A stretch of DNA of 32,000 bases from Nitrospinales bacterium. GTDB taxonomy: Bacteria > Nitrospinota > Nitrospinia > Nitrospinales > VA-1. Made by a program: the position numbers and the translations under genes. Positions 12,005 to 16,635 of the stretch are shown piece by piece; positions within the stretch are counted from its first letter, which is position 1, and the number at the start of each line of letters is the position of its first letter. A model generated the notes under the pieces. It was not told the origin of the DNA, ran no database searches, and saw nothing but the letters and a program-made list of their open reading frames with translations. The stretch is taken from the NCBI GenBank assembly GCA_965262115.1, contig OZ253496.1, positions 1,315,175 to 1,347,174 on the forward strand. The letters are read 5' to 3'.

Positions 12005-13306
12005 ATGGAACCCAAAAACACGATTCACATAAACGCCCAGACCTCAAAACCAAAAGCCATATTGGTGGGGGTTAGCATGCCGGGCATCCGATCCCCGTCC
12101 ACTGAAATTTCACTTGAAGAACTGGAAGGTCTTGCAACCACTGCCAATTATGAGCCGGTGGCCACGTTGACCCAGCACTTAGCAGAGATTAACTGCAAAA
12201 CCTTTTTAGGCAGTGGAAAAGTGGAAGAGATCAGGCAAGCCGTCAAGTACCATTATCCGGAAGCAGTCATTTTTGACGAAGAACTGTCGCCCCGACAAAA
12301 CCGGGAACTGGAAAATATTCTGAAATGCAGGGTCATGGACCGACCCTGGGTCATCCTGGAAATTTTTAGCGACCACGCCCGAACCCGGGAGGCGAAAACC
12401 CAGGTTGAACTGGCAAGGATGAAATATGCCCTTCCCCGTCTTACCGGAATGTGGGGACACCTTTCCCGGCAACGAGGCGGAATTGGCATGAAGGATGTGG
12501 GAGAAACCCAGATCCAACTGGACCGCCGAATGATCCGCAATGAGATCCACAAACTGGAAAAAAAACTCGTTCAAATCGATAAGGAAAAAAAGACCCAGAG
12601 AAAAAACAGGCAGGGAACTTATAAAGTAGCGTTGGTCGGTTACACCAACGCAGGAAAATCCACACTGATGAATTGCCTGACGGGTGCTGACACGCTGGTC
12701 GAGGATAAATTCTTCGCGACCCTGGACGCGACCGTGCGCAAGATAAAGAAAAATTTTCCCTACCCGGTACTGCTCTCAGATACCGTTGGACTGATCAACA
12801 AATTGCCTCATGATCTGGTCGCCTCGTTTAAGAGCACCCTGGACGAAGTGCGTGATGCCGACTTACTGATTCATGTCGTGGACCTCAGTCATCACAAATA
12901 TGCCGAACAAATGCGCACCGCAGATGACCTTCTTCAGCAAATTGGAGTGGACAATATCGATATTCTCACCGTCTTCAATAAAGTTGATGCGTTGTCGAAC
13001 ACCGAAATTCTGGATCGGGTCCTTCATGCTTATCCTTCTGCAATCGGTATTTCCTGCAAAACGGGACAAGGCATCGATTCGCTCCGCCAACAAATGGCCT
13101 GCCATTATGAGAAAAATCTGGTACCGTACCGTCTCGAACTGGAGCACTCCCAGACCATGCTCATTCAGGAAATACGGAAACATGCCCTGGTGTTGAAGGA
13201 GGATTACAACCCCAACGGCATTGCATTAAGCTTACGGCTTTCTCCGGAGGCAAAAGCTAAACTGGAATCCATTTTGAAACGATCTATAAAACCCACACCG
13301 GGATGA
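12005..13306 (+). CDS. hflX: GTPase HflX
   Basis: 433 aa with an N-terminal HflX domain (AILVGV...LEELEGLATTANYEPV...FLGSGKVEEI). G1 is GYTNAGKSTLMN, G3 is DTVG, G4 is NKVD. The last 15 codons lie in the left 45-bp direct repeat. Confidence 0.92.
   Translation: MEPKNTIHINAQTSKPKAILVGVSMPGIRSPSTEISLEELEGLATTANYEPVATLTQHLAEINCKTFLGSGKVEEIRQAVKYHYPEAVIFDEELSPRQNRELENILKCRVMDRPWVILEIFSDHARTREAKTQVELARMKYALPRLTGMWGHLSRQRGGIGMKDVGETQIQLDRRMIRNEIHKLEKKLVQIDKEKKTQRKNRQGTYKVALVGYTNAGKSTLMNCLTGADTLVEDKFFATLDATVRKIKKNFPYPVLLSDTVGLINKLPHDLVASFKSTLDEVRDADLLIHVVDLSHHKYAEQMRTADDLLQQIGVDNIDILTVFNKVDALSNTEILDRVLHAYPSAIGISCKTGQGIDSLRQQMACHYEKNLVPYRLELEHSQTMLIQEIRKHALVLKEDYNPNGIALSLRLSPEAKAKLESILKRSIKPTPG
13250..13294 (+). 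repeat. left copy of perfect 45-bp direct repeat (attL-like), inside the hflX 3' end
   Basis: GCAAAAGCTAAACTGGAATCCATTTTGAAACGATCTATAAAACCC is identical to 14360-14404. Similarity extends ~10 nt leftward with 3 mismatches. Confidence 0.95.
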
Positions 13307-14359
13307 CGTGTTAACGCCAATACGATAAATGACAAAAATTAATTGGGCATATTGTCAAAAAAATTCTGATTCAATCCTTGCTTCCGGTCTAAATTTATTA
13401 CAAGAAGACACTATAGAAGACTTCGATAGCGAATTCTCAAAAGACTATGGTAATTATCTCATTTCCGATAAAAGTAAGGAATGGAATTATATTGGAGAAG
13501 CAAAAAACCTTTCTAAAAGATTAAAACAGCACTCCAAAGAAGAGACTTCTACATTCTATAAGAACTATAAAAAGCTTGAAAAAGACTTCTGCAATTATCC
13601 AAAAGGTCTTAAAATTAGTCAATTTGAAGTTAGAACTATTAACACTAAAATAGGACGGAAAGAACTTGAGGAATTTGGAATAGTAAACATTCCTGCTGTT
13701 TTAAATAAATTCCAAAAACGGAAAAGGAATAGATTTAAACAAAAAGTTGATACTGAAATTTGGAACGGAACTCAGAGCAATTTCCATTCAATTCTCGAAC
13801 AAGAAGAAAAGAAATTAATGGGTTTAAAAAGTTATAATTGGTTTCAACCACAAATACCTTCAACTGCTGGACTATATTGGGTTGAAAACAAATCGAAAGG
13901 ACTCATTTATATTGGAGAAAGTTCTAATATCTACGAAAGATATGGTACTCATTCTAGAGATACTTATTTTTCAGCATTAAGACGACATATTGGAGAAAAG
14001 ATTCTTGGTTTCAACTTGCAGACAATTAACAATCGTAAAAGATATTTCTCGAAATCAGAAAATGACGAAATAACTACTTTTTTAAAAGAATGTATTATTA
14101 AACCATTTTCAATCAATTATGGAAGGTATGAGCTTGAAGAATATTTAATACGAAAATACAACCCGTTATTGAATAGAAAAGGAAATAAGTAAAGGCGCTA
14201 ATTGAGTAAACAGCTCCACCAGTAGAAACTGGCGGAGGTCGTTAAGGCGAAGATTGCAGCCCAGCATCAGACCAGTTTGTTTTCTCCAGAGATGGTTGTT
14301 AAGCAGGTGATTGGAGCAAAAGAGGCGTCTGCATCCAGATCGTCCGATTTTCTCCAAGG
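13295..14359 (+). mobile_element. putative small mobile insertion (nuclease-only cargo) in the hflX 3' end
   Basis: The segment lies between the two 45-bp repeats. G+C drops sharply (single 60-nt lines hand-counted at 27-35% vs ~50% in hflX). It holds one gene (tandem GIY-YIG nuclease). The right ~60-90 bp are a diverged hflX 3' pseudo-copy. No recombinase gene. Confidence 0.5.
13329..14192 (+). CDS. tandem (double) GIY-YIG nuclease domain protein
   Basis: 287 aa. Domain 1 is GNYLISDKSKEWNYIGEAKNLSKRLKQH...ELEEFGIVNIPAVLN. Domain 2 is GLYWVENKSKGLIYIGESSNIYERYGTH...ELEEYLIRKYNPLLN. Both have GxY-N10-YIG, Arg 8 residues after the YIG glycine, then His and a distal E...N. A basic linker KFQKRKRNRFKQK joins them. 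Confidence 0.7.
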   Translation: MTKINWAYCQKNSDSILASGLNLLQEDTIEDFDSEFSKDYGNYLISDKSKEWNYIGEAKNLSKRLKQHSKEETSTFYKNYKKLEKDFCNYPKGLKISQFEVRTINTKIGRKELEEFGIVNIPAVLNKFQKRKRNRFKQKVDTEIWNGTQSNFHSILEQEEKKLMGLKSYNWFQPQIPSTAGLYWVENKSKGLIYIGESSNIYERYGTHSRDTYFSALRRHIGEKILGFNLQTINNRKRYFSKSENDEITTFLKECIIKPFSINYGRYELEEYLIRKYNPLLNRKGNK

Positions 14360-14410
14360 GCAAAAGCTAAACTGGAATCCATTTTGAAACGATCTATAAA
14401 ACCCGATTGA
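14303..14410 (+). pseudogene. displaced or duplicated hflX 3'-end remnant
   Basis: In the frame of the right repeat it reads AGDWSKRGVCIQIVRFSPRAKAKLESILKRSIKPD*. This parallels the HflX tail KEDYNPNGIALSLRLSPEAKAKLESILKRSIKPTPG*. The frame is closed upstream by stops at 14207, 14243 and 14300. Confidence 0.55.
14360..14404 (+). repeat. right copy of perfect 45-bp direct repeat (attR-like)
   Basis: Identical to 13250-13294. It is followed by GATTGA (D, stop) instead of ACACCGGGATGA (TPG, stop). Confidence 0.95.
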
Positions 14411-14448
14411 CATACATTCGCATCGCCCCGGGTTTATAAACCTGATCT

Positions 14449-16635
14449 CTAAAGAACAATCAGTTTGGCATGGCTGGCCGAAAGTTTCTTTTTCCCGTGA
14501 GGGGCTTTAAAAAACACTTCCAGATTCAAATTTTCTTCACTACCTGAAAGGTTGATCACAATTCCCGACCCAAACTTAGCGTGCAAAACCTTTGTCCCGA
14601 TAGAATAAGTACCGTCCTTTGTTCCAATCGAATAGGAACCCCCACTTTTTCCCTGATAAGGAAGAGCTCCGCCAAGTGTGCTGATAAATTGAGGTGCGGT
14701 TTCATTGCTGAACCTGCTGGATTCACGGATCATAACTTCATCGGGAATAGAAAGCAGAAAATCTGATGGAAGATAATTAAAAGTAGTGCCATAGATTCTC
14801 CTACGCCTGGCATAAGTGACGAACAGTTTTTTCCGGGCTCGGGTAAAACCTACATAGCACAGCCTTCTATCTTCTTCATATTGCTCAGAGTCCGACATGG
14901 AACTGGCATGCGGGAAGAGTCCATTTTCCATACCCACTACAAATACCGAAGAAAATTCCAACCCCTTACAGGTATGCAGGGTCATTAATGGAAGAACCCC
15001 ACGCTCGTCATCAAGGTTATCCAGATCCGCCACCAGAGAGGCCGAATCCAGAAACTCCTGCAGGGAACCTTCCCCATTCTCAATGGACTGCTCCACTGCG
15101 GAAAATAATTCCTCCAGATTTTCCATACGTCCTTTACTCTCGCGGGTATCCTCTTTTTTCAACATTTCCCCATAACCCGTTCGGTCTACCACCTCTTGCA
15201 GAAGTGCCAGCGGGTCATCCTTCATGGAATCCAGATGATCGATGATTTGCAAGAATTGGGCAATTCTCTTGCCTGCTGCAGGATCTGTCAATTTTTCCTG
15301 CTCGTTCCGGCGCAAACCCTCCTGGAGCGACAATCCCATTTCCCGGCAATACTGCTCAACCTTTTCCATCGAGGTCTTGCCAATTCCCCGGGCAGGAACA
15401 TTGATAATTCGTTTTAAAGAAACTGAATCACTCGGATTTAAAACAACCCGCATGTACGCCAGCACATCCTTGATCTATTTTCTTTCATCAAAACGCAGGC
15501 CTCCTATTACCTGATAGGGCAACCCGGTTCTCATCAACACATCTTCCAATACCCGGGACTGCGCATTGGTACGATAAAGAACGGCCATATCATTAAAGCT
15601 AAAGCCTTCGTCACGGTTCAAAGCCTGGATTTTTTCGCAAACAAATTCCGATTCATCCGTTTCATCTTCAGCCCTGTAGCACAACACTGGAGAACCCACT
15701 TCATTTTTCGTCCACAATGTTTTATCCTTCCGATTTCTGTTTTCTCTCACTACACTTCCTGCCGCATTTAAAATATTTTGTGTGGACCGGTAATTTTCCT
15801 CAAGCTTGATCACCGTTGTTCCGGGGAAATCTTTTTCAAACTTCAAAATATTTTCTATGTTTGCCCCCCCCCTCCAACGATAAATACTCTGGTCATCATC
15901 CACAACAACGCATATGTTATTGTGCGATTGCGACAGCAGACGTACCATCCTGTACTGAACCGCATTGGTATCCTGAAACTCATCAACCAGAATATACTGA
16001 AACCTGTCGTTGTAACGAGCCCTTAAAGAAGGAAACTCCTGAAACAATCTGCTTGTAAAAACCAGCAAATCGTCAAAATCTAAAGCATTATTTTTTTTCA
16101 GGGCAGACTGGTAAACAAGATAAAGACCCGCCGCCTTGAGTTGGTGACCATAAGGCATCGCATCCGGCTGCAAATCTTCGGGCATGAGAAAATCATTTTT
16201 GAATCCGCTGATGTGACCGAGAAGGGTTTTTGGAGGGAATGCGTCAGCACTGATTTCCGCTACCTTCATACACTGCTTGATCAAAGTCAACTGGTCCTGC
16301 GCGTCGTAGACAGCAAAATCATTGGAAAAACCCAGTTCCGAAATATTCATTCTTAGAATTCTCAGACAAAAAGAATGAAAGGTGCTGATCCAGGGGGAAG
16401 CTCCACGAAGGTCCAGCATTTTCCGGACACGTTCCTTCATTTCCCCTGCGGCTTTGTTGGTAAAGGTTATCGCTAGAATACTTTCTGGAGGAATCCCTTT
16501 CTCTTTAATTAAATTGGCAATGCGGCAGGTGATGACACGTGTTTTCCCGGAGCCTGCTCCCGCCACCACCATCAGCGGACCCTCATTATGGCGCACGGCC
16601 TGTAACTGCTGCGGATTCAAATTTTCAAGATCCAC
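14449..16635 (-). pseudogene. uvrD: UvrD/PcrA-type DNA helicase interrupted by a single in-frame TAG
   Basis: ORF 15475..16635 has a GTG start with GGAGG 6 nt upstream, plus AGAGSGKT, DEFQDT and DDDQSIYRWRGG. ORF 14449..15465 has NVPARGIGKTS, TLHTCKGLEF and VGFTRARKKL. They share one frame and are separated only by TAG at 15475-15477: GGLRFDERK-TAG-IKDVLAYMRVV. Homologues read RK-E-IKD there (recalled). Confidence 0.85.

Follow-up and report, generated by a model that had tools for sequence, protein, structure and literature searches.

A double GIY-YIG nuclease gene behind a duplicated hflX end in Nitrospina and its likeness to an orphan integron cassette

A stretch of 32,000 nucleotides from a Nitrospinales bacterium (hereafter the window) carries, behind the gene hflX, a small insert that is bounded by two direct copies of the hflX 3' end and contains a single gene, encoding a nuclease with two GIY-YIG domains. 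This cargo is best read as an orphan integron cassette, i.e., a promoterless two-domain GIY-YIG ORF with attC remnants, located outside any integron, 4 nt past the hflX stop codon. It is proposed, with about even confidence, that the cassette was captured behind a foreign hflX end and that recombination of the host, acting on the repeat, later brought it in and removed it; how the duplication arose is reconstructed from the anatomy of the locus. A preliminary description of the same DNA had concluded that the combination could not be placed in any described class of element; this was too strong, since the cargo appears, from its sequence, to be of a known kind and the flanking duplication alone is unusual.

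The duplicated end of hflX

The gene hflX (12005..13306, + strand; ORF list and Pfam) is intact and encodes a GTPase HflX of 433 aa ending in ...AKAKLESILKRSIKPTPG*, with the full Pfam architecture (GTP-bdg_N, GTP-bdg_M, MMR_HSR1 and HflX_C) and 94% identity to Nitrospinales HflX. A 45-mer at its end is present exactly twice in the 32 kb of the window, the copies at 13250-13294 and 14360-14404 differing at 0 positions, and no 45-mer match was obtained in any of 100 shuffles, which confirms the perfect direct repeat previously described. Identity is in fact perfect over 46 nt (13249-13294 versus 14359-14404), and similarity reaches 56 nt at 95% identity (13239-13294 versus 14349-14404). The left copy (DR-L, 13239..13294, + strand) is composed of TTTCTCC, a variable purine patch with mismatches to the right copy at 13246-13248, and the 46-nt perfect core (13249-13294); it codes for the last conserved residues of HflX, and its core has the local haplotype of the empty relative L001. 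The right copy (DR-R, 14349..14404, + strand) has an identical core and is non-coding here; TTTCTCC and the purine patch of this copy are on the side of the insert.

The left copy closes HflX with ...SIKPTPG* by means of a 'long tail', ACACCGGGATGAC (TPG* plus 1 nt; 13295..13307, + strand), an hflX ending of a type native to other Nitrospina lineages. The long tail ACACCGGGATGA is identical at 10 of 12 positions to the tail of locus L013 (GCAGCGGGATGA) and also resembles that of L015 (ACATCCGGGTG), and HflX proteins ending in ...KTAPG, ...KTAAG and ...KTASG exist; the close empty relatives, all of the resident clade, have HflX proteins ending in KP(D/G) or similar. Judging from these alignments, the TPG tail appears to be an ending foreign to this clade and of a type native to another Nitrospina lineage, and a protein search with the HflX C-terminus returned only relatives of at most 91% identity, none with a TPG ending. 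The right copy reads ...SIKPD*, with stop codons upstream in that frame, and is thus a displaced gene end and no alternative terminus in use; the earlier suggestion that either copy can terminate HflX therefore stands for the left copy and is withdrawn for the right one. After DR-R, the sequence runs on (14405..14448, + strand) with GATTGA (D*), the 'short tail' of the resident gene, and with the hairpin native to the hflX-uvrD intergenic stretch, in the alignment exactly as in empty alleles. The attL/attR-like anatomy already noticed gains in detail, with a non-resident tail on the left copy and the resident tail kept by the right copy.

The G+C content is 0.27-0.34 over 13300-14200 and 0.44-0.57 in the flanks (about 30% versus about 50%), in line with the AT-richness previously reported. 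In the 156-nt spacer from the ORF to the right repeat (14193-14348), however, G+C amounts to about 49%, and the AT-rich part is thus essentially the ORF alone. As already described, the double GIY-YIG nuclease, with two Pfam matches, is encoded by the sole long ORF between the repeats, and the insert is free of recombinase genes: the ten larger ORFs tested across the window gave no Pfam match to an integrase or transposase. The genes in the window are housekeeping genes only.

Occupied and empty alleles

The same two copies, spacer and ORF are found in L002 (OZ242182.1), an independent complete Nitrospinales MAG chromosome about 93% identical to the window. Clean empty sites are present in four close relatives (L001, L024, L003 and L035), which read ...SIKP(D/G)* and then continue directly with the sequence of the window from 14405 onward, as had been predicted. 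The locus is thus a real insertion polymorphism and no assembly artefact, and the possibility, raised beforehand, that all relatives share the arrangement is contradicted by the four empty alleles. An origin of the duplicated 45-mer from misjoined reads could be suspected from the contig L062, a low-coverage (2x) long-read contig that agrees with the window at 100% of positions and possibly stems from the same population; its probability is negligible, as the presence of the same structure in L002, about 7% diverged, effectively refutes it. Independent occupied alleles are only two, the window and L002. The donor state, i.e., a long-tail hflX followed by the cassette without duplication, was absent from 49 genome loci and from both metagenome scans. 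These scans of metagenome contigs, by protein pattern and by exact spacer 26-mers, were also empty for further occupied alleles, and a scan of viral contigs for either gave no match.

In the 400 bp to the left of the insert, 10 of the 12 informative SNP sites group the window with L001 and L002 with L024, and not occupied against empty alleles; to the right, the grouping is mixed, and no signature of co-conversion of flanking markers with the insert was found in the SNPs beside it. The core polymorphism AAAACCC/AAAGCCC is alike in both copies of a genome and the same as in the empty sister of that genome, and zero differences separate the two 46-nt cores in both occupied genomes. Between the window and L002, the insert has diverged by about 0.08 (dS 0.077 and dN 0.092 for the GIY gene, 10/154 for the spacer), versus a dS of 0.167 for hflX and 0.259 for uvrD, i.e., two to three times less than the synonymous sites of the flanking genes, a difference that could partly reflect a lower mutation rate of AT-rich DNA. 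Furthermore, every empty-site word of up to 47 nt persists in the occupied allele.

The nuclease and its integron-cassette marks

The ORF (13329..14192, + strand; about 30% G+C) encodes a protein of 287 aa with two GIY-YIG nuclease domains, extending over residues ~40-126 and ~181-282. Its two Pfam matches are PF01541 (residues 40-87) and PF20815 (residues 185-287), and a confident AF2 model (pLDDT 91.6) consists of two GIY-YIG-like alpha/beta modules, for which Foldseek retrieved the GIY-YIG domain of UvrC and R.Eco29kI. At least 547 homologues exist, and an alignment of 59 family members, the window and L002 copies among them, has the catalytic Y, Y, G, R, E and N unchanged throughout in each of the two domains. 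The protein is made up of two catalytic folds only, and no I-TevI-, Seg- or NUMOD-type DNA-binding module was recognised in it. Searches of PADLOC, NCBIfam, PHROGs and PDB sequences returned generic GIY-YIG motif matches only (for PADLOC, weak local ones, to PDC-S14 at 1e-9) and assigned no functional family; CMoRE, from a paper in which two GIY-YIG domains are mentioned, was discarded on account of its different architecture, with one GIY-YIG domain and a sensor domain (PMC12923530). Between the window and L002, dN/dS is about 1.2 for the nuclease gene versus 0.22 for hflX, only the most conserved family columns are spared (5/73 versus 49/208 differences, p = 0.002) and all four indels are in-frame. 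From these patterns of substitution, the gene appears to drift in almost neutral evolution, and, with its in-frame indels and intact catalytic residues, it may still be functional.

The sequence preceding the ORF (13308..13328, + strand) has the 5' boundary of a cassette, GTG|TTAACGCC, with a crossover-type G|TT at 13310|13311, followed by a conserved leader, CCAATACGATAA, before the ATG; GTTAACGCC stands 19 nt 5' of this codon. In family members of unrelated contexts homology starts exactly at G|TT (GTTAGCACCAATAC, GTTGCCACCAATACG, GTTACCGCCAATAC), 17-21 nt before the ATG, and in L050-L061, L063 and L066 the upstream DNA is unrelated as far as this very point and shared from there on; the window copy likewise has a G|TTRRRY point at which homology starts. 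A cassette boundary is present in nine of the ten distinct non-Nitrospina contexts read for the nuclease relatives, the tenth (L064) being a restriction/transposase island without one. Relatives with enough flanking DNA possess attC sites of 130-200 nt ending in GTTRRRY, and in six of them (L052, L057, L054, L050, L051 and L066) a box directly following the stop codon is complementary to the start of the cassette at 9/9 positions. Moreover, attC-like repeats recur between successive genes in L054 and L051, and one cassette array, in L066, follows a tyrosine-recombinase gene. Unlike these relatives, the copy under study does not lie, within the window, in an array beside intI/attI.

On the 3' side, a candidate R''-type box, GGCGCTAAT (14195..14203, + strand), stands at +1 after the stop codon, at the same position as the 9/9 boxes of the six relatives. 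It is a near reverse complement of the cassette start, with a 7/9 match to the expected GGCGTTAAC and AAC changed to AAT. A candidate short degenerate attC-like hairpin (14195..14262, + strand; central stem 14213-14239) folds weakly, with z about -2, and holds a possible R' box, ATTGCAGCC, with A where the canonical base is G. In a duplex scan the best candidate for the R''/L'' partner was 14232-14262, at -6.6 kcal/mol versus -10.4 for the bona fide attC of L052, and with ATT in place of GTT; a complete attC, with L''/L' pairing and an R' GTTRRRY at the 3' boundary, was not recovered, no R''/L'' partner being found at the 3' end of the spacer. The following 86 nt (14263..14348, + strand; about 50% G+C) are 93% conserved in L002 and have no similarity to any other locus, metagenome contigs or Rfam; their right part forms with the start of DR-R an inverted repeat (14311-14357) that folds as a hairpin. 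Rfam recognised no RNA family in 13100-14600. The spacer (14193-14348) was also considered as a diverged remnant of an hflX 3' end, owing to an HflX-like frame-2 peptide seen by eye, and this was rejected, as the best blastx match against 50 Nitrospina HflX proteins had E = 2.6 on the wrong strand and Smith-Waterman alignment was no better than with shuffles (p = 0.16). Neither a canonical long attC over the whole spacer nor an attC formed across the permuted (circular) junction had a supporting fold.

Origin of the insert and comparison with known systems

According to the favoured explanation, the cassette would have been captured just 3' of a long-ending hflX (...TPG*) in a related lineage, GTG|TT at the left junction being the point at which the integrase of an integron is expected to make the joint; the sequence predicted for the donor is ...GGATGACGTG|TTAACGCC...CGTCCG|AT.... 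As the anatomy suggests, a small circle or fragment, consisting of the last ~56-69 bp of the foreign hflX, the cassette and ~150 nt of trailing DNA, would then have entered the resident hflX through the conserved 46-nt stretch, with a predicted circular junction ...CAGATCGTCCGAT-TTTCTCC-patch-core-ACACCGGGATGACGTGTTAACGCC. The entry would be a Campbell-type insertion-duplication by host recombination, with no element-encoded recombinase, which produces a direct repeat, an intact HflX with a foreign tail and a resident end displaced downstream. The two copies would still recombine, a process proposed from the observed pattern, being kept identical in each genome, and crossing-over between them would delete the insert precisely; such deletion, possibly together with re-insertion through the repeat, would leave occupied and empty alleles on both local haplotypes. 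The nuclease would be a near-neutral passenger, read through from hflX, to which no driving role could be traced. Against this explanation count the small number of independent occupied alleles, the donor state not being found in the loci and scans covered, the incomplete attC, the lack of an integron integrase within these 32 kb and the length of the shared stretch, as 46 bp is short for efficient RecA-mediated crossing-over.

An unlikely but credible alternative is that of one old illegitimate insertion, inherited vertically and never moved since, with L001 and L024 losing the insert later. A long-tail hflX end, the cassette and trailing DNA would have been joined into the ancestor of the species cluster, creating the duplication once, through homology-facilitated illegitimate recombination or end-joining at the T-run/TTTCTCC microhomology, and the losses would be due to precise deletion between the repeats or to allelic replacement by empty DNA. 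The nucleotide identity between the window and L002, uniform at 91-94% over hflX, ORF, spacer and uvrD, agrees with such a history, as do the T-run that the right junction ...CCGAT|TTTCTCC has in common with the native ...GGC|TTTCTCC, the tail of L001, which looks imported from an L003-like allele, and the four genomes themselves, which form a mosaic, recombining cluster. However, both flanking genes have a dS two to three times above the neutral divergence of the insert (~0.08), the insert must have been lost precisely on two independent occasions, and the identical 46-nt cores in both genomes, with their haplotype-matched polymorphism, call for added gene conversion.

The content of the insert had initially been equated with a free-standing homing endonuclease. 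In this form the explanation, which we regard as improbable, holds that the nuclease travels with a substitute for the 3' end of the gene that it targets, cuts the empty hflX and lets repair copy tail, gene and spacer, as a bacterial counterpart of the GIY-YIG/LAGLIDADG ORFs at the atp6 and cob C-terminal duplications of fungal mitochondria. The protein belongs to a superfamily of homing endonucleases and has both catalytic sets intact; the insert, with its in-frame indels, is present or absent among close relatives and younger than its flanks, and an in-frame foreign tail with the resident end displaced downstream is the anatomy of the fungal cases (PMC6279837). Its relatives argue otherwise, since they lie at an integron-cassette boundary in nine of ten contexts and in a restriction/transposase island in the tenth, i.e., in cassette arrays or defence islands, and none in the contexts read adjoins hflX or a duplicated target; the idea that the non-Nitrospina relatives might sit beside other duplicated gene ends thus found no case among those read. 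The window copy itself keeps the marks of a cassette boundary and has no module of the I-TevI, Seg or NUMOD type, adjacent markers show no co-conversion, dN/dS is 1.2, and no target of up to 47 nt is disrupted, so that insertion confers no immunity. No evidence was found for a self-propagating homing element. The insert does have the terminal direct repeats, the target 3' end restored by element sequence and the empty relatives of an integrative element, and could be a remnant of, or a non-autonomous partner to, an integrase-encoding element targeting the hflX 3' end, CIME-like, moved by an enzyme acting in trans and crossing over, as at att sites, in the 46-nt core. This is very improbable: although the layout is that of textbook attL/attR sites, in which an identical core has arms of imperfect similarity on either side, and the insert comes and goes independently of its flanks, the insert encodes a nuclease only, no integrase or other recombinase was matched by Pfam in the ten larger window ORFs, and none adjoins hflX in 49 related loci. 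In addition, the hflX-like segment lies within 3 nt of a canonical cassette boundary, which fits capture behind a chromosomal hflX and not an attP in a larger island.

There is, finally, a slight chance that the 1,110-bp unit is itself mobile, as a minimal element without recombinase, built from an hflX 3'-end mimic, the double GIY-YIG nuclease of a former cassette, and a spacer. It would circulate among Nitrospina strains via the 46-nt identity with the target and might be helped by its own nuclease breaking empty alleles. If this were true, an integron cassette would have turned into a gene-end-replacing homing/integrative element, linking integron cassettes, homing endonucleases and att-type integration, and bacteria would possess an equivalent of the 'HEG plus C-terminal duplication' units of fungal mitochondria.

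Cassettes outside integrons include SALINs, single attC sites without integrase, and attC x attG insertion takes place at 5'-GWT-3' (Loot et al., bioRxiv 10.1101/2022.09.11.507474). Like a SALIN, the insert is a single promoterless ORF of ~1 kb, from a family otherwise found in cassette arrays, with a G|TT 5' boundary and, after the stop codon, a putative R''-type box complementary to the cassette start at 7/9 positions; it lies downstream of a host gene in the same orientation, which makes read-through possible, and both junctions can formally be written as G|TT and G|AT (GTG|TT and CCG|AT). Unlike in integrase insertion, which occurs without target duplication, 56 bp of the target are duplicated here (46 nt perfectly); moreover, the 3' half of attC is unrecognisable, the conserved AAC/GTT triplets read AAT/ATT, and 13 nt of foreign hflX end accompany the cassette and separate it from resident sequence. 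In fungal mitochondria, GIY-YIG/LAGLIDADG ORFs accompany C-terminal duplications of atp6 and cob (PMC6279837). Such units have in common with the window a GIY-YIG ORF where a conserved gene ends, with a C-terminal segment of foreign origin fused in frame and a resident 3' end remaining downstream as an untranslated copy; they differ in that the window protein has integron cassettes and no site-specific invaders as relatives, its gene drifts, co-conversion is lacking, and the duplicated core has not diverged from the resident sequence, to which it is identical. Campbell-type insertion-duplication brings in a non-replicating circle by way of a short stretch of homology, and attL/attR border integrative elements that occupy the 3' ends of genes. 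As in these systems, the direct repeats on either side of the insert correspond to the shared segment, the target is intact and recombination between the repeats restores a perfect empty site; unlike in them, the circle is here postulated, no recombinase is encoded and the shared segment measures only 46-56 bp.

The dimeric GIY-YIG restriction enzymes R.Eco29kI and R.Hpy188I, as well as CMoRE/PD-T4-3 (PMC12923530), have the GIY-YIG catalytic fold and the small size of the window protein. As in the dimeric enzymes, two catalytic units would allow double-strand cleavage, and, like single-gene GIY-YIG defence nucleases, the family is often found among defence genes (L058, L064), as well as in integron arrays. 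Unlike in R.Eco29kI, R.Hpy188I and CMoRE, the two units are fused in one chain, with neither a methyltransferase partner nor a modification-sensing domain. None of the libraries searched names these nucleases, with two GIY-YIG domains in a single chain, as a family. The family is large (at least 547 members), occurs both as cassettes and in defence islands, and provides candidates for a restriction-like or anti-phage function.

On the favoured explanation, the locus would represent a natural, population-level case of an integron cassette that escaped its integron and settled downstream of a housekeeping gene. Nitrospina, the host, is a nitrite oxidiser of the sea that is of ecological importance and uncultivated. 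Integrase-mediated insertion does not give rise to such a gene-end duplication, and a short conserved coding stretch could act as a makeshift attachment site, letting an insert come and go cleanly without a recombinase of its own. Should the nuclease promote spread, a cassette would here have become a selfish element by a new route; otherwise, the locus would be an ordinary decaying horizontal acquisition.

As regards the right flank, the hflX-uvrD junction was considered as a general insertion hotspot and dismissed, as the 350-410-bp gaps of other Nitrospinota lineages correspond to a conserved small minus-strand gene and contain no insertions. The convergent uvrD/pcrA-type helicase gene of the window (14449..16635, - strand) is interrupted, with an in-frame TAG at 15475-15477.

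The duplicated hflX end and its empty alleles

Exactly two copies of the 45-mer GCAAAAGCTAAACTGGAATCCATTTTGAAACGATCTATAAAACCC are present in the window (13250-13294 and 14360-14404; 0 of 100 shuffles gave a match). The perfect identity amounts to 46 nt (the core) and, with three mismatches in a purine patch on its left, the similarity reaches 56 nt (13239-13294 and 14349-14404). Between the copies lies a single ORF (13329-14192, 287 aa) with two GIY-YIG matches in Pfam, in DNA with a G+C content of 0.27-0.34 vs. 0.44-0.57 in the flanks; the 156-nt spacer following the ORF (14193-14348) has a G+C content of about 49%. Repeat and insert are thus as the preliminary description had reported them. 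Its proposal that either copy can terminate HflX holds for the left one, which closes a complete hflX (12005-13306, 433 aa, full Pfam architecture) ending in ...SIKPTPG*, but not for the right one, which reads ...SIKPD* in a frame carrying upstream stop codons.

HflX places the window in Nitrospina/Nitrospinales, and a genome scan with this protein gave 49 related loci. The empty sites predicted earlier were found in the closest relatives, namely L001 and L024 (94% HflX identity), L035 and L003, where hflX ends in ...SIKP(G/D)* (or SINPN*, SIKSD*) and is directly followed by GATTGACATACATTCGCATCGCCCCGGGTTTATAAACC, corresponding to the window from 14405 onward. The complete MAG chromosome OZ242182.1 (L002) is occupied: ORF, spacer and the two copies of the repeat are all there, about 93% identical to the window at the nucleotide level. 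Since this independent chromosome has the same layout, the insertion is real and the duplication cannot be an assembly artefact. Another contig, L062, shows 100% identity to the window.

The left core is followed by 13 nt (ACACCGGGATGAC, coding for TPG*) that resemble an hflX tail native to a different Nitrospina lineage, matching that of L013 (GCAGCGGGATGA) at 10/12 and also that of L015 (ACATCCGGGTG), with proteins ending in ...KTAPG, ...KTAAG and ...KTASG; the endings in the window's own clade are KP(D/G)* or similar. On this likeness, hflX-derived DNA reaches as far as about 13307 and stops three bases short of the canonical cassette boundary (13310|13311). The unit distinguishing occupied from empty alleles thus consists of a foreign tail of hflX together with cassette and spacer, between resident copies of the core. 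Across Nitrospina the HflX C-terminus varies in length (428-437 aa; hflX 3' ends of L001-L015, proteins P0121-P0131), with two main tail types, short (...K[PS][DNG]*) and long (...KTA[ASP][GE]*), the latter being the apparent source of the tail in occupied alleles.

The 6-nt purine patch (13246-13251 and 14356-14361), which adjoins the left side of the 46-nt core and lies in the middle of the palindrome CTCCGGAG, is different in every allele compared (window, L001, L002, L003, L024, L035). This includes the non-coding right copy, which has AAGGGC in the window and GGGAGT in L002 though the preceding 40 nt are identical; the patch has the look of a local hotspot of mutation or conversion. At 14311-14357, where the insert ends and the right copy begins, the sequence forms an inverted repeat whose arms are 17 nt long (TTGGAGCAAAAGAGGCG ... 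CGTCCGATTTTCTCCAA).

The nuclease family and the nature of the cargo

The window nuclease has 547 detectable homologues, mostly of about 287 aa and, where the source is named, from marine Bacteroidota and Gammaproteobacteria. Ten distinct non-Nitrospina contexts (18 loci) were read. In nine of them the family-shared sequence starts precisely at a G|TT located 17-21 nt upstream of the ATG (GTTAGCACCAATAC..., GTTGCCACCAATACG..., GTTACCGCCAATAC...), and the DNA upstream of this point is unrelated among family members. Just 3' of the stop codon, an R'' box (part of attC, the integron cassette recombination site) is a 9/9 reverse complement of the cassette start (6 loci), and a 130-200-nt imperfect palindrome terminating in GTTRRRY follows the box. 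Moreover, attC-like repeats recur between consecutive genes in two loci (L054, L051), and in L066 the array is placed after a tyrosine-recombinase gene. Boundary, box, attC and arrays together identify these relatives as integron gene cassettes. The only exception, L064, has no cassette boundary and sits in a restriction/transposase island; there (L064:9691-10864) the family member stands beside a 92-aa upstream gene, among restriction-modification genes and IS110/IS4 transposases, a setting that hints that the family may serve in defence. Members of its P0007 branch (L058-L061, e.g. L058:4001-5924) have the same two genes, of 267 aa and 80 aa, downstream of the double GIY-YIG gene in three different upstream contexts, one adjoining FokI-like and Mrr-like genes; this trio may be a three-gene cassette or a defence module.

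The window copy retains the 5' end, GTG|TTAACGCC-CAATACGATAA-ATG, and directly 3' of its stop codon GGCGCTAAT matches the reverse complement of its own cassette start at 7/9. A full attC was not demonstrated in the spacer, which folds into two local hairpins instead of a single long imperfect palindrome; 14195-14262, the best of the short attC-like candidates, is weak, with AAT/ATT in place of the expected AAC/GTT, and 14263-14348 (86 nt) had no match in the hflX comparison, other loci, metagenome contigs or Rfam. The preliminary description had proposed an attL/attR-like layout carrying a free-standing homing endonuclease, a combination that it could not place in any described class. The layout and the empty sites were borne out; the cargo has to be reinterpreted, since the relatives have a cassette boundary in nine contexts out of ten and the window keeps its marks. 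The cargo is best read as an integron cassette outside an integron, SALIN-like (SALIN, a single attC without integrase) and of a known kind. It differs from SALINs and integron cassettes in two respects: no complete attC could be recognised, and the junction carries a target duplication. The layout works like attL/attR or insertion-duplication but without a recombinase, as already noted earlier: the only ORF in the insert is the nuclease, and the ten larger ORFs of the window have no integrase or transposase match in Pfam. The fungal mitochondrial units combining an endonuclease ORF with a C-terminal gene duplication (PMC6279837) are alike in anatomy only.

The AF2 model of the window protein (pLDDT 91.6) predicts two GIY-YIG-like modules, with Foldseek matches to the UvrC N-terminal domain and R.Eco29kI, and in both domains the catalytic residues are the same in all 59 aligned family members. 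No DNA-binding module like those of GIY-YIG homing enzymes was detected by Pfam, the AF2 model or Foldseek. Homing by this nuclease is possible but unsupported: in the contexts read, its relatives occur as cassettes or in defence islands, none of them at hflX or between duplicated target copies, and the flanking SNPs of the window, L001, L002 and L024 show no co-conversion signature with the insert. In addition, owing to the duplication all empty-site words of up to 47 nt remain in the occupied allele, and the insertion therefore gives no protection from a nuclease recognising the empty site. Between the window and L002 copies the dN/dS of the nuclease is 1.2 vs. 0.22 for hflX. All four indels are in-frame, and the most conserved family columns differ three times less often (5/73 vs. 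49/208, p = 0.002), which is evidence for some retained function. We conclude that the nuclease is probably passenger cargo under relaxed constraint.

Turnover of the insert and origin of the duplication

The window belongs with L001, L024 and L002 to one recombining cluster of 3-8% divergence, in which the closest pair switches from region to region. Of the 12 informative sites within 400 bp on the left side of the insert, 10 group the window with L001 against L002 with L024, not occupied against empty; on the right the picture is mixed. The sole core polymorphism (AAAACCC/AAAGCCC) takes the same form in the two copies of any occupied genome, and that form is also the one in its empty sister. 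Between the window and L002 the insert has diverged by about 0.08 (GIY dS 0.077, dN 0.092; spacer 10/154), as against a flanking dS of 0.167 in hflX and 0.259 in uvrD; part of this age difference may come from slower mutation of AT-rich DNA, yet the spacer, at 49% G+C, is equally little diverged. Unlinked SNPs, like copies and a young insert thus indicate at least two gains or losses without the neighbouring markers; they also indicate that something keeps the two copies alike, in other words that the repeat is itself a site of recombination. The data fit each of three candidate processes, namely gene conversion, precise loss of the DNA between the repeats and Campbell-type re-insertion of an excised circle.

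Integrase-mediated insertion by attC x attG (consensus GWT) produces no target duplication (Loot et al., bioRxiv 10.1101/2022.09.11.507474); the window junctions can formally be written GTG|TT and CCG|AT, and a direct integrase origin would thus require an earlier tandem duplication. The left junction fits a presumed integrase-type capture of the cassette directly after the hflX stop codon in a long-tail lineage. In the most economical model, a small circle or fragment, excised or copied from such a cassette-bearing locus and with its junction ...CCGAT|TTTCTCC... in a T-run microhomology, would have recombined into the resident gene through the conserved core. This would account for all features, both the resident patch with the foreign tail on the left and the element patch with the resident tail on the right. 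The main rival, in which one homology-facilitated illegitimate insertion was inherited vertically with later losses, requires extra gene conversion and leaves unexplained an insert younger than its flanks.

The hflX-uvrD neighbourhood

The uvrD/pcrA gene (14449-16635, minus strand) is split by an in-frame TAG at 15475-15477 (ERK*IK), the same codon being GAG (ERKEIK) in L001, L024, L002 and L003; the TAG may be a genuine nonsense mutation or else stem from an error in low-coverage long-read assembly. The hflX-uvrD gap, in other Nitrospinota lineages (L017-L022, L026, L028, L030-L034; e.g. L017:5273-5629), holds a conserved minus-strand gene of about 110-120 aa, missing in the window's clade, L025, L027 and L038. 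Its product has a hydrophobic N-terminus and the motif ...FSGxVKKV...KNKV..KDP.TKKRFT.IV...
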